DNA of 64,000 nucleotides. It comes from an uncultured Candidatus Saccharibacteria bacterium (GTDB lineage: Bacteria; Patescibacteriota; Minisyncoccia; Phycocordibacterales; PALSA-1337). Of this stretch, positions 2,135 to 43,249 are shown piece after piece. Under the pieces are notes generated by a model, which saw only the letters and a list, made by a program, of their open reading frames with translations, was not told the origin of the DNA and did no database searches. Location of the stretch: the NCBI GenBank assembly GCA_964467225.1, contig CAYXPQ010000001.1, forward strand, positions 75,803-139,802. The letters are read 5' to 3'. Both the position numbers and the translations under genes were made by a program. Each line of letters starts with the position of its first letter. Within the stretch, counting starts at the first letter, position 1.

Positions 2135-5100
2135 ATGAAGAATATTATTAAAGTTTCTGTTTCAATATCTGTAATTTTTGTAGTTTTATTTGGTTTTAAT
2201 ATACAAATTTCAAATGCACAGACAAATTCTAATAAAGTTTTGAGTGGAGCTTGTATTTCTATAAACTCTTCTAAAACAATGAAAATTTCTTCCGGTAAAG
2301 TTTATATTAACGGAAAGGAATATGAATATACTGGGGGCGGCGGAAGTTTTCCAAGTAATAAATCATTTCCACTTTATGTAAAAACTCTTTATGGAAGTGT
2401 ATATAATCCATTGCCTGGAGAGGGTAAGGATGGTCCAGATAGTCTTAAGATTGGATATGTTACTACAGGTAAAGATAGTTTGATTACTGAAATAGTAAAT
2501 GTTTCACCATGGTGTGAGAATTATTCTTATGATATTGCAACAACAGCTACTACAAGTAAACCAGTAATAAAGGTTATTAGTCCAAATGGAGGAGAAGTTT
2601 TATATGTTGGCCAAAGTTATCCTGTAAAGTGGAGTGACAACAGTGGAGATGTAAGCAATGTATCTATTTCCCTAATAGATTACAATTCTGGAACGGAATT
2701 TAATCTATCTGGAGATGTCTCATCTAGGTCTTCAGGTGTAGATGGAACAAGCGTTTATTCACTACTAATACCGTCATATATAACAAAGAATATGACAACT
2801 ACAGGTGATGGTAACAATAAATTTAAAATTAGAATTTATTCTAAAAATGGAGCGGTAGATTCAAGTGATAACTATTTTACTGTAAGATCTACAACAACGC
2901 CATCTCTAAAAGTTATTAGTCCAAATGGTGGTGAGACACTATTAATGGAAGGATATTATCCTATAAAATGGTATGACACTAGGGATAGAAGCGATGTTAC
3001 TATATTTCTCGTTGATTACAAAAGCGGAACTGCAATACCTTTAGCTAGTAATGTATCTGTTACTGCATCAGGTATTGATGGTATAAGTACTTATACAGTC
3101 CAAATTCCAGGATATGTAGAAAGAAAGTTGGCAGTCGATACTAAGAGCTTTAAAATTAGAGTTGATTCAACTGGCGGGAGTGATTTAAGTGATGATTACA
3201 TTACTATAGCTTCTGCAACTTCTTCCAGCATAGACACCCCATGCTTTACTTTTAACAGAGACCTATCATACGGATCAGAGAACAAGGAAGTTGACTATCT
3301 AGTCAAAGCTCTACTTAAAGAAGGATCAATAAGAAATCCAAATAATCTAACTATTAAAAGTGAGAAATTTGATGAATCAGTATTAACTGGTGTAGTAGCA
3401 TTTCAAGGTAAATACGGAATACCACAAACAGGATATGTAGGACCTCTTACAAGAGCGATGTTAAATCGACTTTATGGTAATTGTAATCAGAGTGAGAATA
3501 TTTCTGCTACATTAAAGTTAATTAGCCCAAATGGTGAGTTATATAATGTTGGCTCAAGAGTTCCAATCTCATGGAATCACAATGGTAATCTAAAGAGTGT
3601 AACAATAGATATAATGACTGCTGATGGACAGAAAACATTACTTTCTCAATCATATAATGAAAATCCAGGAAGATATTCTTTCTTAGTAGCTACAGGAACA
3701 CCAGAAGGTAAGTATATGGTAAGAATAAGAACAACCAACTATTCTTCAAGTAATTATTTCTATGTGGGTAGCACAGGAAATTCTGCGACAAACTCAAAAT
3801 GTGATTTTGAGGTAAAATCACCAATAGCAAATTCTAAGGTTAACTTCCCACTGACAGTAACTGGTACTATAGATAGAAGTAAGTCAAATAATGCTGGATG
3901 TAGATGGCAAACATTTGAAGGGGTAGCTGGTACGGCCAAATTTTACGCTTATCTTACAGAAAAGAATCGTGATGGAACAATGAAAGGCTGGACATCAATA
4001 GGTGATTCAGTAATTATGAATCTAGAGAAAGTTAACTCAGATAAATCAAATTTTAATGTCAGATTTAATTTTCCGGAGGGAGGTTTCCAAATTAATAATC
4101 CAGTTAAGATTGTGTTTACAGAGGAAAATCCAGCAGCAATACGTCCAGCACTTACCTTTGAATTACCATTATACTTAGATACCTCAGGAAATTCTGCGAC
4201 AACAACTCCAAACATCTCCAAGGCTCAAATATCTGGTTCATGTGTTCTGAGTGCACCATCTGGTTATGCCATTACTTCAGGTAAATTAAAATTAAACGAT
4301 AAAGAATATTCATTTAGTGGTGGAAGAGGGTCATATTTGCCAAGTAATAGAGTAATGCCAGTATATCTATATATGCCAAGAGAGGGTTATGTGGCAAGTT
4401 ACGTATATTTGAATCCACCAGTAAATGTAGGGGTTGGAACAACTACAGCATTGAAGATTGCAACAATTGTTACAGGAGATAAAGGGGTTATAAGAAATAT
4501 TTATAATCTAAATCCTCTTTGTCAAAGTTATACAAATATCAAAGCTGAAGCAACATCAGTGCCTACAACTAATCAAACAATAAAGGTTATAAGTCCAAAT
4601 GGTGGGGAAGTGTGGCAGATAGGTAAGACATATGAATTTAGATGGAGTTCAAGTGGAATAGATAAGGTAATGATCAATCTTACAAATCAAGATAATAATT
4701 TTGGATATGGTACATTGAATGCTATTGATGCGAGAACAGGAAGGGTCACCTATACACTTCCAAATACTCTACCGGCAGGTAAATACAAAGTATTTATGGT
4801 GGATGCATCAGGTAAAACAATTACAAATGATTCAAGTGATAATTATTTCACAATAGTAAATTCAACATCAGGATATACACCAACTCCATCTACTACATAC
4901 ACTCCATATCCAAGCTATACACCTACATACTCACCAACTCCAAGTCAAACATATAATTCATACCCAACAGCAACCTACACCTCATCACCAACATACACAA
5001 CTAGCCCAACATATTCATCTACTCCAACATATACCTATACACCAAGTCCAACTTATTCATCATCACCTACAGCAACATATTCACCTAGTTATACATACAG

Positions 5101-5218
5101 TCCAAGTCCATCATATTCACCATCGCCATCTTCTTCACCGACTTCATTCTATGATATAGACAGGTTCTCATTAGGTGCAGCAATACTTAGTGCATTTAGG
5201 GGAATGATGGGGTTGTAG
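2135..5218 (+). CDS. large secreted surface repeat protein with a peptidoglycan-binding domain and an S/T/P/Y-rich tail
   Basis: 1027-aa ORF with a signal peptide. It has at least four internal repeats of a ~90-aa module carrying the motif (I/V)SPNGGE..W..G..Y.(I/F)(K/R)W; this resembles the Kre9/KNH-like family (tentative). A PG_binding_1-like segment is present (DYLVKALLKEG..VVAFQGKYGIPQTGYVGPLTRAML). There are duplicated large N-terminal and central modules (SGKVYINGKEYEY... and SGKLKLNDKEYSF...). The C-terminus has ~90 aa of T/P/S/Y-rich low complexity followed by a short hydrophobic end. Confidence 0.75.
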   Translation: MKNIIKVSVSISVIFVVLFGFNIQISNAQTNSNKVLSGACISINSSKTMKISSGKVYINGKEYEYTGGGGSFPSNKSFPLYVKTLYGSVYNPLPGEGKDGPDSLKIGYVTTGKDSLITEIVNVSPWCENYSYDIATTATTSKPVIKVISPNGGEVLYVGQSYPVKWSDNSGDVSNVSISLIDYNSGTEFNLSGDVSSRSSGVDGTSVYSLLIPSYITKNMTTTGDGNNKFKIRIYSKNGAVDSSDNYFTVRSTTTPSLKVISPNGGETLLMEGYYPIKWYDTRDRSDVTIFLVDYKSGTAIPLASNVSVTASGIDGISTYTVQIPGYVERKLAVDTKSFKIRVDSTGGSDLSDDYITIASATSSSIDTPCFTFNRDLSYGSENKEVDYLVKALLKEGSIRNPNNLTIKSEKFDESVLTGVVAFQGKYGIPQTGYVGPLTRAMLNRLYGNCNQSENISATLKLISPNGELYNVGSRVPISWNHNGNLKSVTIDIMTADGQKTLLSQSYNENPGRYSFLVATGTPEGKYMVRIRTTNYSSSNYFYVGSTGNSATNSKCDFEVKSPIANSKVNFPLTVTGTIDRSKSNNAGCRWQTFEGVAGTAKFYAYLTEKNRDGTMKGWTSIGDSVIMNLEKVNSDKSNFNVRFNFPEGGFQINNPVKIVFTEENPAAIRPALTFELPLYLDTSGNSATTTPNISKAQISGSCVLSAPSGYAITSGKLKLNDKEYSFSGGRGSYLPSNRVMPVYLYMPREGYVASYVYLNPPVNVGVGTTTALKIATIVTGDKGVIRNIYNLNPLCQSYTNIKAEATSVPTTNQTIKVISPNGGEVWQIGKTYEFRWSSSGIDKVMINLTNQDNNFGYGTLNAIDARTGRVTYTLPNTLPAGKYKVFMVDASGKTITNDSSDNYFTIVNSTSGYTPTPSTTYTPYPSYTPTYSPTPSQTYNSYPTATYTSSPTYTTSPTYSSTPTYTYTPSPTYSSSPTATYSPSYTYSPSPSYSPSPSSSPTSFYDIDRFSLGAAILSAFRGMMGL

Positions 5219-5250
5219 AAGTTATCAACTTTTAACAGAATTAATTTAAA

Positions 5251-5289
5251 AATATACTTTATGGGTGAAGAATATCCATAAAGTATATC
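5251..5289 (+). promoter_or_regulatory. perfect inverted repeat spanning the start codon of the downstream protease gene
   Basis: The sequence is aatATACTTTATGG-gtgaagaatat-CCATAAAGTATatc. Each arm is 11 bp perfect (13/14 when extended). The loop begins with the GTG start codon at 5265, and a T-rich tract follows. Confidence 0.5.
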
Positions 5290-7349
5290 TTTTCATATTA
5301 ATTTTTCTATTCAGTTCATCACCTGTATCAGCGATTGAGATTCAGTGCATAAATAATGAAACAAACGATTTAGCTTTTCATGTTAATAATCAAATAGACA
5401 ATAGAATTAAATTGTCTGATTCATCAACGGGGTTAAATATCTATAGTGTTAGGTCTACTGAGGCAGGGTCAAATTGGACTAGGAATTCTAATTCTTGGAC
5501 TCAAAAATTATCACCTCTAGATTTTACTGGAGTAAGTGGATCAAATAATGATTTAGCACATCATGCTAACAATCCTTATTGGGGAGGGGCAACACTTATT
5601 ACTCCAAGACATTTTGTAACAGCAAATCACTTTAGATTTGAAAATGGTTCAACTGTTAATTTCTATGATAAGGAGGGAAGGGTAGTCTCTAGGAAAATGA
5701 CTAATTCCTATACAGTTCCAAATACTGATATTACAGTAGGACTACTCGAAAGCGATGTCGATAACAGTATCACATATTATCCTGTTATGAAAATTTCTAC
5801 ATTAGAGAGTATGTTATCAAGACCAGACGGATATTTCTATAATGATTTACCAATAGTAGTATTTAATCAAAATGCACAAGCAATAATTCGCTCCCTTATA
5901 AAAAAAGACACACCAAAAAGTTTTAATCATGCTAATTACGGTGATAGTATTAGATCTAGCTTCACCAAGGACTTAATAGAAGGAGACTCAGGACAGCCAG
6001 GTTTTATTATCATTAATGATAAGCCAATTTTACTTTTTGCAAATTTTCTAACGAATACATCTCCAAGTTTGGGTGATTATATTAATGAAATAAATTCTGG
6101 CATACAATCTTTGGGAAATAGTAATGGATATAATATTACAGAATATACAAATAATAATTTTAAAACATATAGTTCATTCTGTACTGGGCCAGTGTTACCA
6201 TCGCCTGATCAGTTTAAAGTTACAACAAATACCGCATGCTTATCTCCTACAGATAAATTAAAGGTAGATATAACTTGGTCTAAGCCACTAAATTATTCTA
6301 TGCAATCTAGTGGATATCAGTATAGATTATATAAGAACAATCAATCTCCAGATTTCTTATCAATGAATACTTATAATTATACTGATATAAATGTTCAACC
6401 TAATACAGAATATACTTACATATTAAAACTATATTACGGAACATATTCATCAGGTGAAGTAAAATTCCAAATAAAAACTCCATCTTTGTGCTCATCTTCT
6501 GTTATAGTAAATAATCCTCCAGTTGTTGTATCTAATCCAGTTCCAGTTACTACTCCTCTATCCAATTATGAACCTTTACCAGCCAAAAATAATGATGCGG
6601 ATAAGGACGGAATAATAGACGGCCTGGATATGTGTCCAAATACAAGTATTGATCAAAAAAGTTTTGTTAATACCAAAGGATGCATTAAACCAAAAATAAC
6701 TAAATTTAGTTTTTCAAAAGATTTATCCAATATTGATCTTAGAGAAGTTGATAATCTTGAAATATCTAATTCATATGGAAGGGTGTTGTTCACTTCACCC
6801 GTTTCACTTACAAGATCTAATCAACAATTAGACATTGATACTAATTTATACATTGGCAATAATATAGTTTCATTAAATTCTGTTAATCTTCCTGAATTAA
6901 ATAGGGGAGCGATAATTACATTTAACAATCTTTCCTATAGAAATCCAGTAATATATAAAGATGATTCAATTTGTACTACTTGTGAAGTTGTTTCTTATAC
7001 CAATAATACTTTCAGATTTAAAGTCCTAGGATTTTCAAATTATTCTGTTGTAGATATGCCACTTATTCCAGACAAACCTGTAATAATAGATAACCCCATT
7101 CAGGATCCAACTCAACCTGTGACAATTACGCAACCCGCAGTACAGCCAGTAATCATTACTCAGTCAGTTGTTAATCAGAGTGTTGTCCAACAAGTACAGA
7201 CACCACCAACACAACAAACAAAACCATTATCACAACAAGGAATACCAAAACTCCAATCAAATCCCAACATTGAAGTTCCAGTTGATAATAATCAAGTACC
7301 AGATGCAGATATTTTTAATACTGGTTATTTCCCTGAAGATATATATTGA
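5265..7349 (+). CDS. secreted trypsin-like (S1 family) serine protease with Fn3-like domain, thrombospondin-type-3-like Ca-binding repeat and Q/P/V-rich C-terminus
   Basis: 694-aa ORF with a GTG start and a signal peptide ending VSA|IEI. His motif WGGATLITPRHFVTANHF, compared with trypsin CGGSLI..WVLTAAHC. Asp candidate in NTDITVGLL. Ser motif EGDSGQPGF, compared with GDSGGP. An Fn3-like region follows (YQYRLYKNNQSP...TEYTYILKLYYG), then DADKDGIIDGLDMCPNT (TSP3/OmpA-like Ca-binding). Confidence 0.65.
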   Translation: MKNIHKVYLFILIFLFSSSPVSAIEIQCINNETNDLAFHVNNQIDNRIKLSDSSTGLNIYSVRSTEAGSNWTRNSNSWTQKLSPLDFTGVSGSNNDLAHHANNPYWGGATLITPRHFVTANHFRFENGSTVNFYDKEGRVVSRKMTNSYTVPNTDITVGLLESDVDNSITYYPVMKISTLESMLSRPDGYFYNDLPIVVFNQNAQAIIRSLIKKDTPKSFNHANYGDSIRSSFTKDLIEGDSGQPGFIIINDKPILLFANFLTNTSPSLGDYINEINSGIQSLGNSNGYNITEYTNNNFKTYSSFCTGPVLPSPDQFKVTTNTACLSPTDKLKVDITWSKPLNYSMQSSGYQYRLYKNNQSPDFLSMNTYNYTDINVQPNTEYTYILKLYYGTYSSGEVKFQIKTPSLCSSSVIVNNPPVVVSNPVPVTTPLSNYEPLPAKNNDADKDGIIDGLDMCPNTSIDQKSFVNTKGCIKPKITKFSFSKDLSNIDLREVDNLEISNSYGRVLFTSPVSLTRSNQQLDIDTNLYIGNNIVSLNSVNLPELNRGAIITFNNLSYRNPVIYKDDSICTTCEVVSYTNNTFRFKVLGFSNYSVVDMPLIPDKPVIIDNPIQDPTQPVTITQPAVQPVIITQSVVNQSVVQQVQTPPTQQTKPLSQQGIPKLQSNPNIEVPVDNNQVPDADIFNTGYFPEDIY

Positions 7350-36488: not shown

Positions 36489-36575
36489 GGAGAGATGGGT
36501 GAGTGGTTTAAACCAGCGGTTTACTAAACCGCCGTTCTTTAATTAGAACCGCGAGTTCGAATCTCGCTCTCTCCG
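36489..36575 (+). tRNA. type II tRNA-Ser-like gene with apparent anticodon ACU (unusual)
   Basis: Acceptor GGAGAGA/TCTCTCC, anticodon arm GCGGT-TTACTAA-ACCGC, long variable arm gttct-ttaat-agaac, T-arm GCGAG-TTCGAAT-CTCGC and discriminator G. Confidence 0.65.
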
Positions 36576-36577
36576 CA

Positions 36578-36706
36578 ATGATAAGCAAGGACGGCTAAAT
36601 GCCGTCCGAGCTTAGCATCATTGCGTGAGAAGAGCAGATGAGAAAGCCGGAGCGCGACGGCGCGAGGCAGGGTCGTAGGCTGAGCCAGCAGGCGAAGACC
36701 TATGAC
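36578..36706 (+). other. 129-nt GC-rich structured insert downstream of the second tRNA-Ser-like gene
   Basis: Hairpins caatgataagc..gcttagcatcattg and ggacggc-taaat-gccgtcc. It ends ...tgaCCGAAT, like element 1. Confidence 0.5.
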
Positions 36707-36726
36707 CGAATCTCGCTCTCTCCGCA
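36707..36726 (+). repeat. exact 20-nt direct repeat of the tRNA 3' end (T-loop to CA)
   Basis: cgaatctcgctctctccgca is identical to 36558..36577. Confidence 0.7.
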
Positions 36727-36732
36727 AATTAT

Positions 36733-37257
36733 TTACCCCTCAATCAACTCAACATTTATATCTAGAGTAACATCATTTGCAACTACTAATCCTCCCGCTT
36801 CCATAACAGCATTCCATGATACTCCATAATCTTGTCTGTTTAATGTACCTGTAACTGTAAAAGCTGCTACTCTTTTACCATATATACCCATAACTATTCC
36901 ATCAAAATATGCATCAAGTGTAACTGTTTTTGTTACTCCTCTCATTGTTAGATCACCTTCTATTAAATATTTATTTCCAGATGACTTCTTAAATGATTTT
37001 GAGACAAAAGACATAGTAGGATGATTGGCAGAGTCGAATAAGTCTGCAGATCTTAGATGATTATCTCTTGTTTCATTGTTTGTACTGATGCTTGAAGTCT
37101 TCGTACTGAATTCTATCTTTGCATTTTCAAAATCATCATTATCAGTGATTACATTTCCTGAGAATTCATTGAAATGACCCTTTACAGTTGAGACAACCAA
37201 ATGCTTTATCTTAAAACCTATTGTTGAATGTGCCGGATCAATATTCCATTGTGACAT
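36733..37257 (-). CDS. YceI-like polyisoprenoid-binding protein
   Basis: 174 aa. The N-terminus WNIDPAHSTIGFKIKHLVVSTVKGHFNEFSG matches the YceI family signature. Confidence 0.8.
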   Translation of the reverse strand: MSQWNIDPAHSTIGFKIKHLVVSTVKGHFNEFSGNVITDNDDFENAKIEFSTKTSSISTNNETRDNHLRSADLFDSANHPTMSFVSKSFKKSSGNKYLIEGDLTMRGVTKTVTLDAYFDGIVMGIYGKRVAAFTVTGTLNRQDYGVSWNAVMEAGGLVVANDVTLDINVELIEG

Positions 37258-38085: not shown

Positions 38086-38694
38086 TTAATGTGTTAGTGT
38101 TAAGTTCATAATATTATTATATCCACCTTCGTCGAGACATCTATTTGCTTCATTTAATGTACTACCAGTAGTTGTTACATCATCAATAACTACTATTCTC
38201 TGATTTTTATCAATACTTTTGACTAAACTAAATATTTTTTGAGAATTTACTATTCTTTCTTTACGATTTTTATGTGTTTGCTTTTCTATATTTCTATTTC
38301 TAATAATAAAATCAAAGTCTTTTTTAAATATTTTATCTTTATCAAGTTTAATTATTTCATCAATCATTAATTCACATTGATTATAGCCACGTTCTCTTCT
38401 TCTTTCTTTAGAAATAGGTATTGGTATCAGTAATAATGGCTGATTATGCTTAATGAGTTCACAATATAGAGAATACCCAGCGATTTCTATGGCCTTTTTA
38501 TTTCTTTTGTATTTGATTTGCCATACTAACTCCTTAATTATTGGTTCTTGATATGGATAAATAGAGCTATTCCACTCATTTTTAAATGAATATTTACTAT
38601 AAAGCTCTTCTTTATTGATATTTCTTATTTCAACTTCATTTATATTAGGAGGGAAAATAAAGTCTAGAATGTAGTCAATTATTTTTAACATCAT
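38086..38694 (-). CDS. ComF-like phosphoribosyltransferase-domain protein (lacks N-terminal zinc ribbon)
   Basis: C-terminal PRTase motif RIVVIDDVTTTGSTL. It is adjacent to the type IV pilus locus. Confidence 0.6.
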   Translation of the reverse strand: MMLKIIDYILDFIFPPNINEVEIRNINKEELYSKYSFKNEWNSSIYPYQEPIIKELVWQIKYKRNKKAIEIAGYSLYCELIKHNQPLLLIPIPISKERRRERGYNQCELMIDEIIKLDKDKIFKKDFDFIIRNRNIEKQTHKNRKERIVNSQKIFSLVKSIDKNQRIVVIDDVTTTGSTLNEANRCLDEGGYNNIMNLTLTH

Positions 38695-38735
38695 ATCATT
38701 CTACACTAATTCTTGATTAGTGATATAATACTGCA

Positions 38736-39875
38736 ATGAGTTTTATGAGTAGTATATTCTCAATTTTCTCAAGCAAGAGCCCCAGTGTTCTTGGTGTTGA
38801 TATTGGTTCCTCTGCGATAAAGGTAGTACAGATAAAGAAAAAAAGAGGAAGGGCAGTGCTCGAAACCTACGGAGAACTTGCTCTAGGCCCATATTCTGGT
38901 GTGGAAGTTGGTAGGGCCACGAATCTTCCTGTAGACAAAATTATTGATGCATTAAAGGATATTCTAAGAGAATCAAAGACAACTACAGTCTCAGCTGGAG
39001 TAGCTCTCCCGTTATCTTCAAGCCTCATTTCATTTATCAGTGTTCCCGCAGTTCCAGACAAGCAATTAGCTGATGTTATAAAACTTGAAGCTAGAAAGTA
39101 CATACCAGTGCCTATGAATGAAGTAATGATTGATTATTCTATTGTTCCTAAGGAAGATAATTATCCTCCTGAGGATGATAGTCAAAATCAAAATACAAAG
39201 CCAGATCCTGCTCAACCTTCAAAGTTAGTTAATAAAGATGTATTGGTTGTGGCAATTCACAATGAATACGTAAATAATTACCAATCAATTATGACTGGAA
39301 GCGGTATACAACCGACTTTCTATGAAATTGAGTTATTTAGTTCAATAAGAGCTGTGGTAGATCAGGGTATTAATGCTGTAATGATTGTAGATATGGGTGC
39401 AAGTATTACCAAGCTCTATATAGTCGAAAGAGGAATATTACGCACATCTCATATTATAAATAGAGGAGGTCAAGATATTACCTTAGCTATTTCAAAATCA
39501 CTAAGTGTTAGTGTCAGTGAAGCAGAAAACTTAAAGAGAGTAAATGGTCTCAAGGGTGGTCCAGAATACAAAGAATTGACTGAAATCATAACAGTTAATC
39601 TAGATTACGTATTCTATGAGGCAAATGCTACAATGCTGAATTATCAAAAGAAATACATGAAGAATGTAAGTAAAGTAATACTTACTGGTGGGGGAGTATT
39701 ATTAAAAGGTCTTACAGATCTTGCAAAGATCAGTTTCCAAACTGAAGTGATATATGCAGACCCATTTTCAAGATTAGAAACCCCTGCTTTCTTAGCAGAT
39801 CATTTCCTTCAAGCGGGTCCAGAATTTGCAGTAGCGATTGGTTGTGCTCTGAGAAGGCTTTCCGAGGTTGATTGA
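38736..39875 (+). CDS. pilM: type IV pilus assembly protein PilM (actin-like ATPase fold)
   Basis: 379 aa with N-terminus VLGVDIGSSAIKVVQI. It is first in the pilMNO order. Confidence 0.8.
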   Translation: MSFMSSIFSIFSSKSPSVLGVDIGSSAIKVVQIKKKRGRAVLETYGELALGPYSGVEVGRATNLPVDKIIDALKDILRESKTTTVSAGVALPLSSSLISFISVPAVPDKQLADVIKLEARKYIPVPMNEVMIDYSIVPKEDNYPPEDDSQNQNTKPDPAQPSKLVNKDVLVVAIHNEYVNNYQSIMTGSGIQPTFYEIELFSSIRAVVDQGINAVMIVDMGASITKLYIVERGILRTSHIINRGGQDITLAISKSLSVSVSEAENLKRVNGLKGGPEYKELTEIITVNLDYVFYEANATMLNYQKKYMKNVSKVILTGGGVLLKGLTDLAKISFQTEVIYADPFSRLETPAFLADHFLQAGPEFAVAIGCALRRLSEVD

Positions 39876-39933
39876 TAAGATATACACATAAGCTATCGAT
39901 TTAACTTTAATAATCTAGTATAATTTATACTGA

Positions 39934-40575
39934 ATGGAGACTAAATTTCAAACATCATTTATACCAAAGAAACCTTTAGTAACTGATCCTACTAAACCTA
40001 TAGTCGTTCACCGCGGAGGTGTAAGTATAATGATGATTGTATCAATAATTCTATTCATTGCATCAATAGGAGGTGCAGTATTTAGTGTTGTTTGGATTGG
40101 AGTTCTAAACCAAGCTCAAGAATCATATAAACAACAATTAGCGGATAGCGAAAAGAGATTTAATATATCCTTAATTGAAGATTTAAAGAAATTTAGTTCA
40201 AAAATTGAAATCAGTAAGGAATTATTCGAGAAACATTTAAGTGTTTCAGAGATTTTTCCAATTATTAATGAATTGACTATTGAAACAGTAAAATTTGATA
40301 GTTTTGTATTTTCTGAACCAGAGAAAGGTGGAGATAATATAAAGATTACAATGTACGGAGTAGCAAAAAACTATAATTCTATAGCATTTCAGTCAGATGT
40401 ATTCGGTTCTTCAGAGAAATTCGGCAAGAATAAAGTAATAAAGAATCCAGTGGTTGCAGATCTCTCAGAAGAAGAGAGTGGTGAGATCAACTTTACATTT
40501 AGTGGTTTATTAAGTACCAATGATGTGTTGTATGAGAAGACGGTAGATGCAAGTGTTAATATCAACAATCAATAA
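39934..40575 (+). CDS. pilN: type IV pilus assembly protein PilN-like (single TM)
   Basis: 213 aa bitopic protein following pilM. Confidence 0.65.
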   Translation: METKFQTSFIPKKPLVTDPTKPIVVHRGGVSIMMIVSIILFIASIGGAVFSVVWIGVLNQAQESYKQQLADSEKRFNISLIEDLKKFSSKIEISKELFEKHLSVSEIFPIINELTIETVKFDSFVFSEPEKGGDNIKITMYGVAKNYNSIAFQSDVFGSSEKFGKNKVIKNPVVADLSEEESGEINFTFSGLLSTNDVLYEKTVDASVNINNQ

Positions 40576-40580
40576 ATTAT

Positions 40581-41156
40581 ATGAATAAAGGAGTTGCACC
40601 AATTCTACTTTTAATACTAGCTGTCGGAGTATACTTTACTTTTACTAAGAGTAAGGTCGATGAAATTAAGTCTATAAAAACCGTAAATGCTGGATACGAA
40701 GAAGCTCTAGAGAATGTAGAGAAGCTTATTAAGGTCCGTGATGGAGTTCTAAAGACATATAATTCGATTGATGAGGTTGATAGAAGAAGATTAGATAAGA
40801 TTATCCCAAATAACATAGACAATGTAAGATTGATAATTGATATTAAGGGAATTGGTGAGCAGCATGGCTTAACGCTAAGAAATGTTAAAACAAGTGCAAA
40901 GAGTGCCGCTACAACAAATTCAGCTAATGGTGTAGGTATAGGTTCAGAAGTTTCTGCCTATGGTAGTGACTCATCAAAATATGAGACAGTGACTCTTTCA
41001 TTTGAAGTAGCAGCAAGTTATAAGAGTTTTGTTGAATTACTAAAATCAATAGAATCTAGTTTGAGAATATTAGATATTTCAAAAATAGATATTATAGCCA
41101 ATGATACAAATATCTATGATTATGAGGTTGAGTTAAAGACATATTGGTTAAAATAA
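40581..41156 (+). CDS. pilO: type IV pilus assembly protein PilO-like
   Basis: 191 aa with an N-terminal TM helix and a coiled-coil region. Confidence 0.6.
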   Translation: MNKGVAPILLLILAVGVYFTFTKSKVDEIKSIKTVNAGYEEALENVEKLIKVRDGVLKTYNSIDEVDRRRLDKIIPNNIDNVRLIIDIKGIGEQHGLTLRNVKTSAKSAATTNSANGVGIGSEVSAYGSDSSKYETVTLSFEVAASYKSFVELLKSIESSLRILDISKIDIIANDTNIYDYEVELKTYWLK

Positions 41157-41533: not shown

Positions 41534-43249
41534 ATGAGTGTAGTTGATATTCTATTAAAGAAAAATCTTATATCACAAGATGATATACGTGAGATTAAAA
41601 AGAGAACTGGAGAAGGAGAATCTCTAGATCAAATTTTGGTTGAAATAGGAGTCCATTCAGAAGATATATTGGCTGCCAGAGGTGAATTTCTGAATATTCC
41701 TATTAGAAATTTAGGTGAATCTAGTGTTCCATTTGAAGCTTTGGATTATATCCCAGAAGAATCAGCAACCCATTATAAATTTGTTCCAATTGGATTGAAA
41801 GAAGGGACTTTAGAAGTTGGTATTGTTGATCCTGATAATATAGAAGCTAGAGATGCATTAAATTTTATTGCATCAAAAAGTAATATTCCTTACAAAATAT
41901 TTTTGATAAGTGGTACAGATTATACAAAAGTAATAGAGTTATATAAGGGAATTGGTGGAGAGGTATCAAAGGCTCTTTCTGAACTTGAAACTGTTCTCTC
42001 TATTGATAACGAAGCTACAGTAGATGTAAAGAAAGGCAAGACAGAGAAAGACACAAATGCAATAATCATAGAAGATGCTCCTGTGGTCAAGATTGTAGCA
42101 ACTATTGTTAGATATGCTACAGAGGGTAATGCTTCTGATGTACATATTGAACATATGCGTGACAGAGTCAGGGTACGTTTCCGTGTCGATGGTACTCTAA
42201 ACACTAGTCTCGTTCTTCCATCTCAAGTTCATAGTGCTGTGGTCGCACGCATTAAGGTTCTTTCTAATATGAAATTAGACGAGAAAAGAAAACCGCAGGA
42301 CGGCAGATTCTCAGCAAGAATTGATGGTAGGAAAGTGGATTTTCGAGTCTCTACATTTCCAGCTTACTATGGGGAGAAGGTCGTGATGCGTATCCTAGAT
42401 CAAGAGAAGGGTGTAAAGAAGATTGAGGAGATGGGACTGTCTGAGAAAAACCTAGCACATTTCAAAGAGGCAATTAATAAACCATATGGACTAATTTTGA
42501 TCACTGGACCTACAGGTTCTGGAAAATCAACAACACTTTACTCTATGTTAAATGAAGTTGATAGAGAAGGAGCAAATGTGCTTTCTCTAGAAGATCCTAT
42601 TGAATATAATATGGATGGTGTAAGTCAGTCACAGGTCCATCCAGAGATTGGTTATACATTTGCTTCTGGATTGCGTACAACTCTTAGACAAGATCCAGAT
42701 ATAATAATGGTCGGTGAGATCCGAGATAAGGAGACTGCGCAGCTTGCTGTGCAAGCTGCGCTTACAGGTCACTTAGTGTTCTCAACCCTACACACTAACA
42801 ATGCCGCTGGAGTTATACCAAGACTTATAGATATGGGTGTAGATCCTTATCTTATTGCGCCAACACTTATTCTCGCAATCGCTCAGAGACTTGTCGGAAC
42901 TCTGCCTCAAGGTGGGGGTAAGCCTATTCCGGTTGAAGGTAGTATAAAAATGCTTATTGATAGACAATTCTCTGATCTTCCAGAGCAATATAAGAAGGAG
43001 ATTCCATTTACAGATACAGTATTCGGAATAAATCCAACCCCCGACTGTCCAAAAGGAACACGAGGACGTATGGCAGTGTTTGAAGTTATGAGAATGGATA
43101 AAGAAATTGAAGCAGCAATTCTAAAAAACCCAAATGAGTTAGAGATTTCAAGAATATTAAGACAAAAGGGAATGTTGACGATGAAAGAGGATGCAATGCT
43201 GAAAGCCTTTCAAAGGATAATTCCATTTGAGGAAGTTAATAAGCTCTAG
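41534..43249 (+). CDS. pilB: type IV pilus assembly ATPase PilB (GspE family)
   Basis: 571 aa with an N-terminal GSPII_E_N-like domain and Walker A GPTGSGKSTTLY. Asp and His boxes are present. Confidence 0.9.
   Translation: MSVVDILLKKNLISQDDIREIKKRTGEGESLDQILVEIGVHSEDILAARGEFLNIPIRNLGESSVPFEALDYIPEESATHYKFVPIGLKEGTLEVGIVDPDNIEARDALNFIASKSNIPYKIFLISGTDYTKVIELYKGIGGEVSKALSELETVLSIDNEATVDVKKGKTEKDTNAIIIEDAPVVKIVATIVRYATEGNASDVHIEHMRDRVRVRFRVDGTLNTSLVLPSQVHSAVVARIKVLSNMKLDEKRKPQDGRFSARIDGRKVDFRVSTFPAYYGEKVVMRILDQEKGVKKIEEMGLSEKNLAHFKEAINKPYGLILITGPTGSGKSTTLYSMLNEVDREGANVLSLEDPIEYNMDGVSQSQVHPEIGYTFASGLRTTLRQDPDIIMVGEIRDKETAQLAVQAALTGHLVFSTLHTNNAAGVIPRLIDMGVDPYLIAPTLILAIAQRLVGTLPQGGGKPIPVEGSIKMLIDRQFSDLPEQYKKEIPFTDTVFGINPTPDCPKGTRGRMAVFEVMRMDKEIEAAILKNPNELEISRILRQKGMLTMKEDAMLKAFQRIIPFEEVNKL

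Follow-up and report, generated by a model that had tools for sequence, protein, structure and literature searches.

The tRNA-Ser(ACU) locus and its sister

The stretch of Candidatus Saccharibacteria DNA analyzed here (64,000 nt, hereafter the window) contains two tRNA-Ser genes that are each followed by a structured insert ending in a copy of the tRNA 3' end, and it is this element that we describe. The better preserved of the two repeats is found at what we call locus 2, where a tRNA-Ser gene with anticodon ACU (ACT) lies at 36489..36576 on the forward strand. The gene is called by ARAGORN, matches the Rfam tRNA model with 56.9 bits and is intact, with G73 at 36575, C74 at 36576 and an incompletely encoded CCA end that reads G-C-A-A. 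An earlier note on this DNA had reported an exact 20-nt repeat of the end of this gene; the repeat is real and extends by one further A to 21 nt (CGAATCTCGCTCTCTCCGCAA). Copy 1 (36558..36578, forward strand) comprises tRNA positions C56-C74 plus AA and spans the 3' part of the T-loop, the 3' strand of the T-stem, the 3' strand of the acceptor stem, the discriminator and C74, whereas copy 2 (36707..36727, forward strand) repeats it exactly as C56'-C74' plus AA. The numbering was read from the sequence, with the first base of the repeat as C56 of the T-loop and the nineteenth as C74. By our own arithmetic, the chance of a 21-nt repeat within 150 nt is about 150 x 4^-21, which is negligible. The 129 nt between the copies hold no credible open reading frame (ORF) in the ORF list, and they do contain the hairpin, the conserved block (GTGAGAAGAG / GATGAGAAAG) and the terminal junction (TGACCGAAT) that had been noticed before. 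A convergent gene of the YceI family (36733..37257, reverse strand; from the ORF list, Pfam PF04264, E = 8.6e-50) bounds the element and is not part of it; as previously stated, its stop codon falls 6 nt past 36726, the end of the 20-nt repeat.

The sister element, at locus 1, occupies 35007..35144 on the forward strand behind a tRNA-Ser(GCU) gene (34917..35006, forward strand; ARAGORN, Rfam), and is identified by alignment, fold and covariance model. Here the repeat is imperfect, copy 1 (34988..35008, forward strand) and copy 2 (35124..35144, forward strand) differing at 2 positions (CGAATCCCTCCGGTTCCGCA vs CGAATCCCTCCGTCTCCGCA). Both inserts have a GC content of about 60%, compared with about 30% around them and in the genome, and both fold far better than dinucleotide shuffles (z = -7.6 and -6.2) into the same architecture. 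That the two are homologous, rather than alike by chance, and that each is bounded by copies of the 3' end of its own tRNA had been proposed before and is upheld here. The observation made in the earlier note is thus correct in every detail, while its interpretation is supported in part. The tRNA does not carry the insert in the sense of being interrupted by it: the element follows an intact tRNA instead. Two further features had not been reported, namely a segment inside the element that is antisense to the downstream repeat and pairs with it, and a conserved, covarying three-way-junction fold; these point to a structured single-strand element, probably RNA, that is more than an insertion scar.

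A family confined to the Patescibacteria

Relatives were collected with a pattern consisting of GAGAAAGSCGGA, a gap of 35-65 and TGACCGAAT, scanned over one genome per species in 185,579 species. The pattern fixes 21 core positions exactly, plus one two-fold S position, and invariance at those positions is uninformative on selection. The scan returned 79 loci, which in other genomes were viewed as 8-kb stretches designated by L-numbers. Sixty of them come from Patescibacteria assemblies (about 50 genomes) of the Saccharibacteria, Paceibacterota, Taylor-, Morani-, Harrison- and Yanofskybacteria, Minisyncoccia, WWE3 and others; these 60 include three bins labelled Bdellovibrionales or Pseudobdellovibrionaceae in which the element is the same and mis-binning is possible. 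The 19 loci left over are coding sequence of unrelated phyla, and the fact that 0 of 19 match the covariance model described below agrees with the approximately 17 chance pattern matches expected.

The covariance model (R1) was built from 62 copies and its E-values are rough. Copies from the Patescibacteria, or candidate phyla radiation (CPR), score 62-114 bits with it, and its weaker matches are diverged copies behind other tRNAs (Glu, Arg and Leu, from a reading of the anticodon loop). The copies of the window score 107.3 and 92.3 bits (E = 3.7e-27 and 4.7e-23), both being among the 62 members of the model, and independent evidence for their homology comes from the alignment and the similar folds. 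There is no other credible match to the model in the 64 kb. A weak match at 42266..42366 on the forward strand (16.3 bits, E = 0.026, 40% GC) lies inside a long coding region and was judged spurious.

Association with tRNA genes is the most conspicuous trait of the family. Among 65 copies, 47 lie at most 120 nt 3' of a tRNA and on the same strand, 36 of them behind tRNA-Ser (all five anticodons), four behind tRNA-Ala, two each behind tRNA-Leu and tRNA-Tyr, and one each behind tRNA-Val, tRNA-Trp and tRNA-Phe; most of the others are found at the end of a contig or after cargo. For 26 of the 47 tRNA-adjacent copies, the end of the element (...GUGAC) is followed by an exact repeat of at least 18 nt of the neighbouring tRNA, starting from C56, with a start-to-start period of 110-153 nt (149 nt in nine cases). 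An A follows copy 1 in 24 of these 26, and CA, as part of an encoded CCA, follows copy 2 in eight. Copy 2 is truncated or interrupted in L012, L018, L024, L040, L062, L067, L075 and L080.

The family is previously uncatalogued. Rfam release 15, searched at its gathering thresholds and at E <= 10 with the window and 13 loci, matches only tRNAs and transfer-messenger RNA (tmRNA), and the weak matches (sX4, plastid untranslated-region families, mascRNA, permuted tmRNA) all fall on the tRNA itself. Models for the hammerhead, twister, pistol, hatchet and hepatitis delta virus ribozymes, RNase P, tmRNA, Y RNA/YrlA and omega RNA/HEARO give only chance-level matches over the insert. A group I or group II intron finds no Rfam match at E <= 10 either, and the tRNA is complete upstream of the element. 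A blastn search of 50,697 phage and 72,556 plasmid records had no match to the element, and two scans of viral contigs produced nothing, or one high-GC chance match that the covariance model does not recognize; a phage or plasmid origin was rejected. The literature searched, including PMC13011429, PMC11109978 and PMC11665869, contains no description of the element. The nearest paper is a survey of group I introns found within patescibacterial tRNA genes, in which the element is not mentioned (PMC13011429). The finding is real and not an ordinary one: a new, widespread, GC-rich and structured family of 130-150 nt, located at tRNA 3' ends and confined to the Patescibacteria.

A covarying three-way junction closed by an antisense copy of the tRNA end

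From 5' to 3', the element consists of a long hairpin (P1), an antisense segment (AS), a three-way junction (the strand GAGAAA, hairpin P3, the dinucleotide RG, hairpin P4 and the dinucleotide GA) and the direct copy of C56-C74. At locus 2, P1 lies at 36577..36622 on the forward strand and reads AAUGAU-AAGC-AAG-GACGGC-loop-GCCGUC-CGA-GCUU-AGC-AUCAUU in the minimum free energy (MFE) fold; at locus 1, it lies at 35010..35044 on the forward strand. A 2x2 internal loop of purines is conserved in it, alongside a 3-nt bulge; C72-G73-C74 of the tRNA can prolong its outer stem, and compensatory changes occur in 12 of its 20 pairs among 19 copies of the tRNA-Ser/Tyr/Trp type. In many other (non-Ser) copies, P1 is a hairpin resembling an intrinsic terminator (a GC stem and a T run) that precedes AS and the core.

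The antisense segment of locus 2 (GCGUGAGAAGAGCAGAU; 36623..36639, forward strand) is complementary to tRNA positions 59-74 with three 1-nt bulges, and that of locus 1 is GACGGUGGGU (35045..35054, forward strand). Across the family, AS measures 16-20 nt and is antisense to the same tRNA positions. It constitutes the 5' strand of a closing helix, P2, the 3' strand of which (36710-36725 at locus 2) lies within copy 2, and in the folds it has copy 1 as an alternative partner. In the predicted structure, the pairing of AS with copy 2 closes the junction and creates a pseudo acceptor/T-arm helix. The pairs proximal to P2 are 83% paired, and their covariation follows the tRNA type.

The remaining components of the junction are as follows. 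The purine strand J2/3 (GAGAAA; 36640..36645 at locus 2 and 35055..35060 at locus 1, where P3 and P4 come after it, both on the forward strand) is present in 62 of 62 aligned copies, but it was fixed by the search pattern. P3 (36646..36668, forward strand; GCC-GGA-[GCGC GACG GCGC]-GA-GGC) features a conserved GGA/GA internal loop and takes the form GSC-GGA-hairpin-GA-GSC across the family. At alignment columns 29:54, 47 copies have a CG pair and 15 a GC pair, and the inner pairs covary too. P4 (36671..36707, forward strand) has the base GGUCG/UGACC, a variable distal stem and the loop AGCA. We infer its basal helix, for which near-invariance counts as independent evidence in the GGUCG strand alone, UGACC having been part of the search pattern; a basal G.U wobble is seen in 60 of 62 copies, and the distal pairs show 11-37 compensatory changes each. 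Within copy 2, G36708-A36709 stands opposite G36640-A36641, and the two could possibly form a tandem G.A pair.

The fold is strongly supported by covariation. In the 62-sequence alignment, 90.6% of cells are paired, compared with 35-45% when the partners are slid by 1-3 columns, and the covariation score of 0.461 contrasts with 0.06-0.10 in controls, 0 of 500 shuffles reaching the observed value. Evidence of conservation, on the other hand, comes only from the positions in between GAGAAAG, CGGA and TGACCGAAT, which the collecting pattern had fixed. The pairs also indicate which strand is folded: G.U pairs are frequent and C.A pairs rare, and it follows that the folding strand is the tRNA-sense one, be it as RNA or as top-strand DNA.

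Several resemblances to known motifs were considered and rejected. The strands GUGACCGA, GAGAAA and GGGUC recall the CUGAUGA, GAAA and GUC of the hammerhead ribozyme, but a manual mapping of the junction onto the hammerhead core, like one onto a K-turn, fails on the order of the strands and their spacing. The sequence AUGAUGA ... CUGA occurs in P1 of locus 1, as a K-turn or box C/D motif would, but there is no 3-nt bulge in register and other copies do without the GA; the K-turn is also ruled out by the covarying register, which supports a plain P1 helix. The match of GAGAAAGCCGG to a conserved RNase P sequence (GAGGAAAGUCCGG) at 11 of 13 positions was treated as a coincidence, with no model match and different pairing partners. 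Finally, a kissing interaction of the P4 loop (AGCA) with the GCU anticodon loop is discarded because the P4 loop is unchanged when the anticodon changes (L055a and L055b).

Pairing specificity and alternative folding

The AS of locus 2 pairs with its own copy 2 at -20.8 kcal/mol, as opposed to -10.4 +/- 2.8 kcal/mol for the copies of other elements (rank 0 of 63). Preference for the own copy 2 extends to the family at large, with a median z of -1.2 and values of -3 to -4.5 for the Ala, Trp and Phe copies and for window copy 2, even if AS often presents bulges and mismatches. At locus 1, where the two copies of the repeat differ, AS matches copy 2 better than copy 1 (-17.7 vs -13.2 kcal/mol).

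The two loci of the window also differ in their predicted folding. The MFE fold of the full-length locus 2 (36489-36730; -122 kcal/mol) pairs the 5' strand of the tRNA with copy 2, and copy 1 with AS. Locus 1 (34917-35146), the copy 2 of which no longer matches the 5' strand of the tRNA, folds as a normal tRNA followed by a closed element. The alternative fold of locus 2 makes a two-state RNA thermodynamically possible.

Filled, truncated and empty loci

Loci orthologous to that of the window were fetched through homologues of the methyltransferase gene that precedes tRNA-Ser(ACU). A full element is found at tRNA-Ser(ACU)/(GCU) loci of Saccharibacteria in the window, L079, L067 and L080. In L080, where the neighbouring methyltransferase (P0001) is 98% identical, the same element is present with copy 2 cut after CTCGCTC: an insertion of about 630 nt (L080:3800-4430, corresponding to window positions 36716-36733) replaces the last 10 nt or so of copy 2, directly before yceI, and carries a Cys-rich ORF of 197 aa at copy 2. 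In L090-L095, a 3'-deleted stump is left with only P1, AS and GAUGAGA. In L083, all that persists is a degenerate P1 at tRNA-Ser(ACU) and, at tRNA-Ser(GCU), a short remnant. L086 has nothing behind tRNA-Ser(ACU), the tRNA being followed by CAAATTG like the window flank after copy 2, and a diverged element with a perfect 18-nt copy 2 behind tRNA-Ser(GCU).

Several genomes contain more than one copy, behind different tRNAs and with recombined P3/P4 modules. The two copies of L019, located behind tRNA-Ser(CGA) and tRNA-Ser(UGA), have identical interiors of about 130 nt, AS included, and yet each is flanked on both sides by the 19-mer of its own tRNA; L055 is similar. Tandem copies of the element occur in L073 and L078. 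In L101, the element behind tRNA-Ser(GCU) ends in CGATTCTCTGTAGGGTCACA, the 3' end of a different, Glu-like tRNA, and these mixed ends suggest recombination between elements at two tRNA loci. The element is, in short, dispensable, multicopy and decaying.

Some loci have acquired cargo genes. ORFs lie between copy 1 and P1 in L044 (497 aa), L048 and L074; those of L080, L044 and L048 have no match in Pfam, NCBIfam or PADLOC, and that of L074, for which only Pfam was searched, has none in Pfam. L028 (oriented 2890-5340) presents an array of four copies of the tRNA-Ser(CGA) 3' end, in the order tRNA, element, copy 2, a gene for an MBL-fold (metallo-beta-lactamase-type) hydrolase, the last 29 nt of the core with a copy 3 that includes CCA, a methyltransferase gene and a tRNA 3' fragment. 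The MBL-fold cargo gene is flanked by 44-nt direct repeats.

A number of smaller variations were observed around these copies. An insertion of 22-23 nt (ACTTAGCAAAGTCGCTTACGTG) splits copy 2 inside the T-stem strand in L067, L098 and L099, and its junction recurs about 1.4 kb downstream in L067, which suggests a second, even smaller repeat. L098 has an extra hairpin inside P3. A GC-rich palindrome (CTGCCGGCAGG-like) lies within copy 2 of L006 and L030, upstream of which degenerate core fragments (GAAGAAAGCCGAGGCGGGGCAAUUCC) and a TTCGAAC...CACCGCA block look like older, decayed tandem copies. In L008, L036 and L044, a conserved module of the form ...AAAGCCUU...AAAGGUUCUAAC(A/U)CGAGAC, followed by a CUCCGCA-like end, sits between cargo and P1, 60-75 nt upstream of the latter; direct repeats of 6-8 nt (CTCGAGAC or CACGAG) border this module, which has no Rfam match. 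L048 and L074 contain instead a tRNA-like, uncalled sequence of about 88 nt that ends in GUGGGCCGCA and likewise has no Rfam match.

Origin and possible role of the element

The region 36577-36727 is one copy of the family, and it sits 3' of a tRNA gene without damaging the tRNA. We favor the reading that the element is a non-autonomous insertion, directed at tRNA 3' ends and mobilized in trans, and assign to it a probability of about 0.5. The element would be co-transcribed with the tRNA, which would be freed by normal 3' processing at copy 1, so that insertion presumably costs the host nothing. A trans-acting enzyme, apparently not encoded nearby, would recognize the folded single strand (more probably RNA, with top-strand DNA as the alternative), and AS together with the T-loop-like CGAAU would allow recognition of the 3' end of the tRNA gene by base pairing. 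The ending of AS complementarity next to A58, as in a retroviral primer-binding site, would fit a role in recognition or priming. Insertion might then take place through staggered breaks, at 55/56 on the bottom strand and at 74/75 on the top strand, that duplicate C56-C74, followed by fill-in or target-primed copying, or else through the action of a staggered-cut integrase. Copies would in time decay, be deleted or be rearranged, and the repeats would become a hotspot for small cargo genes. Breaks of this kind would account for an imported interior that has local repeats at either side (L019a), for the fact that copy 1 is followed by A and copy 2 by the native CA or flank, for a repeat that starts at the universally conserved CGAAU, with microhomology to the element end ...GACCGAAU, and for an AS inherited from the donor.

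A mobile or templated origin had already been proposed in the earlier note. It is the best explanation for more than 60 copies behind many tRNAs in about 50 genomes, and it is also backed by the near-identical interiors at different tRNAs (L019, L055) and by orthologous loci that are full, truncated, reduced to a remnant or empty. A simple attL/attR (Campbell) model predicts the wrong parentage of the repeats in L019a and at window locus 1. Campbell integration of a 149-nt circle was rejected: it fits the common 149-nt period, but the chimeric repeats that it predicts are not seen in L019a.

Several observations weigh against this reading, starting with the lack of an evident mobilizing gene. 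Pfam was run on 148 of 319 neighbouring ORFs, and among the 25 commonest of the 139 families found there is no integrase, transposase or reverse transcriptase, and no HUH, Cas1, TnpB, IscB or Cas12 protein; this result is the scope of all statements on neighbouring genes below. The tyrosine recombinase that had been suggested as a candidate is absent from the element itself, from this set and from a crude scan of the window for mobility motifs, which produced nothing at all. The commonest neighbour families are housekeeping ones (RecG, FtsH, aminoacyl-tRNA synthetases, Ddl, LemA, PilM). When the 459 ORFs within 4 kb were clustered all against all, the outcome was housekeeping synteny alone, apart from one spurious family of ORFs reading through the element. 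The ends of the element (AAUGAU..., ...GUGAC) have no terminal inverted repeats, and a duplication of 19-21 bp is unusual for bacterial transposons. No clean pair of filled and empty loci in near-identical strains was obtained, the neighbouring protein of L086 being only about 63% identical, and the identical interiors of L019 could have arisen through gene conversion between two older copies. In 21 of 30 informative cases, L076 and L060 among them, AS is a better match for the tRNA than for copy 2, the opposite of window locus 1; there, a diverged copy 2 matched by AS implies either selection on P2 after insertion or that AS travels together with copy 2. Non-Ser copies, which combine a perfect repeat with a well-matched AS, do not fit the mechanism in a simple manner, and would need AS-guided target choice, AS templating or ongoing homogenization. 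Lastly, the core is almost invariant across CPR classes (most invariant positions being those fixed by the pattern), and the same synteny of GroEL, LemA, TPM and tRNA-Ser occurs in Saccharibacteria and Paceibacteria; both observations fit purifying selection for a host function as well as they fit recurrent insertion. The predominance of tRNA-Ser is partly a matter of ascertainment, given that the pattern derives from tRNA-Ser-linked copies.

One alternative is that the element is a structured RNA of benefit to the host, that is, a conserved tRNA 3' trailer of about 150 nt ending in an acceptor/T-arm mimic, the repeat of which is kept by selection. Such an RNA might act as a decoy or substrate for RNase Z, RNase P, the CCA-adding enzyme or toxins, or as a conformational switch, given that two pairing partners are open to AS, the 3' end of the tRNA itself and copy 2. 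We hold this to be an unlikely but serious possibility. Very strong covariation, an almost invariant junction and synteny conserved across CPR classes are what it would lead one to expect, and so are the shared orientation with the tRNA, the lack of an intervening terminator in copies of the tRNA-Ser type, the compensated divergence of copy 2 and AS at window locus 1 and the two-state pairing that the MFE fold of locus 2 makes thermodynamically available. Nevertheless, related Saccharibacteria loci that are empty or hold mere stumps reveal the element to be dispensable, and the terminator-like P1 of many non-Ser copies would stop transcription before AS and the core are reached. A function that depended on the mimic is also hard to reconcile with the many copies in which copy 2 is truncated or interrupted, with an AS that is so often bulged or mismatched, and with several copies per genome behind different tRNAs and with recombined P3/P4 modules.

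The terminator-like P1 has a different meaning if transcription of the core is unneeded, as it may be if the element is a recombination site akin to those of integrons or of the CTX phage. According to this explanation, which appears improbable to us, the pseudo-duplex of AS and copy 2 formed on the top strand would be recombined with the tRNA gene by a trans-acting tyrosine recombinase of the Xer or IntI type, and the slot between copy 1 and AS would carry nothing, a hairpin or cargo genes. The AS:copy 2 helix does reproduce the target duplex with bulges on one strand only, cargo ORFs lie exactly between copy 1 and P1/AS in L044, L048 and L074, and arrays punctuated by copies of the tRNA 3' end exist in L028, L073 and L078, even though the 44-nt repeats flanking the L028 cargo are better explained by homologous recombination. 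The window further encodes what reads as competence and type IV pilus machinery, through which single-stranded DNA would be taken in. On the other side, no integrase adjoins any tRNA or element, either among the neighbouring families or in the motif scan of the window, and the fold, which joins several helices around invariant purines and keeps a G.U wobble, looks more like RNA than like the known folded DNA sites, which are simple hairpins. Moreover, both repeats of L019a are local and copy 2 of window locus 1 is non-local, and no single crossover point fits both.

In a third alternative, the element would be a guide RNA made up of a scaffold and a 19-21-nt 3' guide that equals the 3' end of the tRNA gene, used for homing or binding by an RNA-guided protein encoded elsewhere. 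The layout fits, and it is known that type V-K CRISPR transposons home to tRNA genes with short guides. The tRNA target directly follows GGTT/AGTT, a T-rich motif of the kind recognized by Cas12 and TnpB, and the difference between RGTT before the tRNA copy and GACC before the guide copy would permit discrimination of self from non-self. We nonetheless judge it very improbable: the supposed guide is sequestered in P2 by AS and often truncated, no TnpB, IscB or Cas12 gene is found among the neighbouring families, and there is no Rfam match to omega RNA or HEARO. As for a chance repeat or an assembly artefact, which had been named as what might undo the original observation, the window probably derives from a metagenome assembly, given that the related sequences were all recovered from metagenome-assembled genomes, but the same architecture in more than 60 independent assemblies from many studies, with locus-specific repeats and covariation, has already refuted it for practical purposes.

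A bolder reading is that the element would be a protein-less, nucleic-acid-guided mobile cassette peculiar to the CPR. We advance this only tentatively, as a rather unlikely proposition. By analogy with short interspersed elements (SINEs), AS might serve as primer-binding or target-recognition site, and the tRNA-like 3' end might be copied by a reverse transcriptase acting in trans, perhaps of the diversity-generating retroelement type that is abundant in the CPR. By analogy with integrons, the folded AS:copy 2 helix would be the recombination site, and small genes would ride in the slot after the tRNA. Either form would amount to a mobile element of a new class and would give ultrasmall bacteria a new way of gaining genes.

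The Patescibacteria account for a large share of bacterial diversity and have tiny genomes, the mobile DNA and non-coding RNA of which are little known. If the element is mobile, it embodies a new, harmless manner of targeting tRNA genes, with an internal antisense guide and duplication of positions 56-74, and it marks hotspots of gain and loss of small genes. If it is a functional RNA, it defines a new class of tRNA-linked RNA that can pair in two states, with the 3' end of the tRNA itself or with a decoy copy. In practical terms, the element may confuse tRNA annotation and genomic-island prediction, and the covariance model can annotate it in thousands of metagenome-assembled genomes. The readings are testable in Saccharibacteria that are cultivable and naturally transformable.

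Other genes and tRNAs of the window

The genes of the window are typical of Patescibacteria (FtsH, RecG, prepilin, PilM/N/O, ComF). Translations that read as prepilin-like, ComF-like and PilM/N/O-like are encoded at 32063-32698 and 38086-41156, around the two tRNA loci; Pfam support, obtained in related loci, is confined to PilM and ComF-type (Pribosyltran) domains. As competence and type IV pilus machinery, they would matter in the event that DNA uptake spreads the element or its cargo.

The tRNA-Ser(ACU) itself has the loop UUACUAA and a covarying anticodon stem, and it is kept across Saccharibacteria beside a normal tRNA-Ser(GCU), being present in L055, L067, L079, L080, L083, L086 and L090 and also throughout L090-L095. 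An A at position 34 is very unusual in bacteria. In codon usage, AGA is the main Arg codon (29 per 1000), and AGU outnumbers AGC (14.4 vs 4.0 per 1000). With AGA so common, an inosine that also read AGA would be harmful, and hence the ACU tRNA probably reads AGU with an unmodified A34. The window contains also a tRNA-Ile(UAU) at 31877-31951, with ATA used at 35 per 1000 codons; this tRNA, which reads AUA without lysidine, is rare in bacteria. A standard one-piece tmRNA is located at 28419-28827 on the reverse strand (Rfam, 109.5 bits), with an unusually long predicted tag (AKVKSIVSPYFGSRDFTFALATA), and no element follows it.

Comparison with known systems

The most obvious precedent for a repeated tRNA 3' end is provided by integrase-mediated islands and prophages at tRNA genes, which are reportedly bounded by attL and attR and include a sublocation at the T-loop, as Williams is said to have described in 2002. 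The element resembles them in a repeat that begins in the T-loop and covers the rest of the tRNA up to its 3' end (19-21 nt from C56, in 26 of 47), in leaving the tRNA intact, in tandem accretion and in the presence of cargo between repeats. It differs in an interior of only about 130 nt, without integrase or arm-type sites, in an internal antisense copy of the core, in a covarying multi-helix fold and in a repeat parentage that is unfit for a single crossover. A single crossover would leave one repeat derived from the element and the other from the host, and the copies do not agree with one such point: L019a and L019b share their interior with both repeats local, and at window locus 1 the distal repeat is non-local and matches AS. 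Casposons, transposons dependent on Cas1 that enter tRNA 3' ends and duplicate 14-15 bp of the target, likewise produce a long duplication over the 3' end of the tRNA gene, and a staggered integration of their kind is plausible here; the element, however, has no Cas1, PolB or terminal inverted repeats, its duplication is of 19-21 bp, it is 100 times smaller and it is found in the CPR only.

The comparison with the attC sites of integrons and the attP(+) site of the CTX phage is of a different nature, for it concerns the folded strand. In both cases, inverted repeats fold to mimic a duplex target with strand-specific mismatches or bulges, cassettes form arrays at one anchor site, and the site spans 60-150 nt; the AS:copy 2 helix is, moreover, specific for its own tRNA, as expected of an attC-type pseudo-duplex. 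The element departs from these sites in being anchored at a tRNA 3' end, in a three-way junction with invariant purines and in folding on the transcribed strand, and no dedicated IntI or other integrase lies beside the anchor tRNA among the neighbouring families.

Retroelements offer a further set of parallels. Like the primer-binding site of retroviruses and long terminal repeat (LTR) elements, AS is complementary to the 3' end of a tRNA and stops at 59, next to A58, and the direct copies recall an R ... R arrangement. Like SINEs and the Mauriceville plasmid, the element is non-autonomous, has a tRNA-like 3' end, sometimes with CCA, and shows a duplication length in the target-primed range. 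One 5'-truncated copy (L028) is on record, 3'-truncated copies too (L090), and the duplication length is nearly fixed. Against these likenesses stand the absence of a linked reverse transcriptase, LTRs, poly(A) and internal promoter boxes. To our knowledge, retroelement logic of this kind has no bacterial precedent. Group II introns, for their part, are not reported in Patescibacteria (PMC13011429).

Two other comparisons concern shape and size. With mascRNA, viral tRNA-like structures and the tRNA-like domain of tmRNA, the element has in common an acceptor/T-arm-like helix, a discriminator followed by (C)CA and a position 3' of another RNA; it diverges from them in lacking a T-arm hairpin and analogues of the D and anticodon arms, in a helix that extends over positions 73-74 and in having no Rfam match. 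With miniature inverted-repeat transposable elements and repeats of the repetitive extragenic palindromic type, it shares its small size and its multicopy, non-coding, structured, intergenic and patchy character, and it is set apart from them by ends without terminal inverted repeats, by a repeat of 19-21 nt rather than 2-10 bp, by a superphylum-wide distribution and by strict specificity for the 3' ends of tRNA genes.

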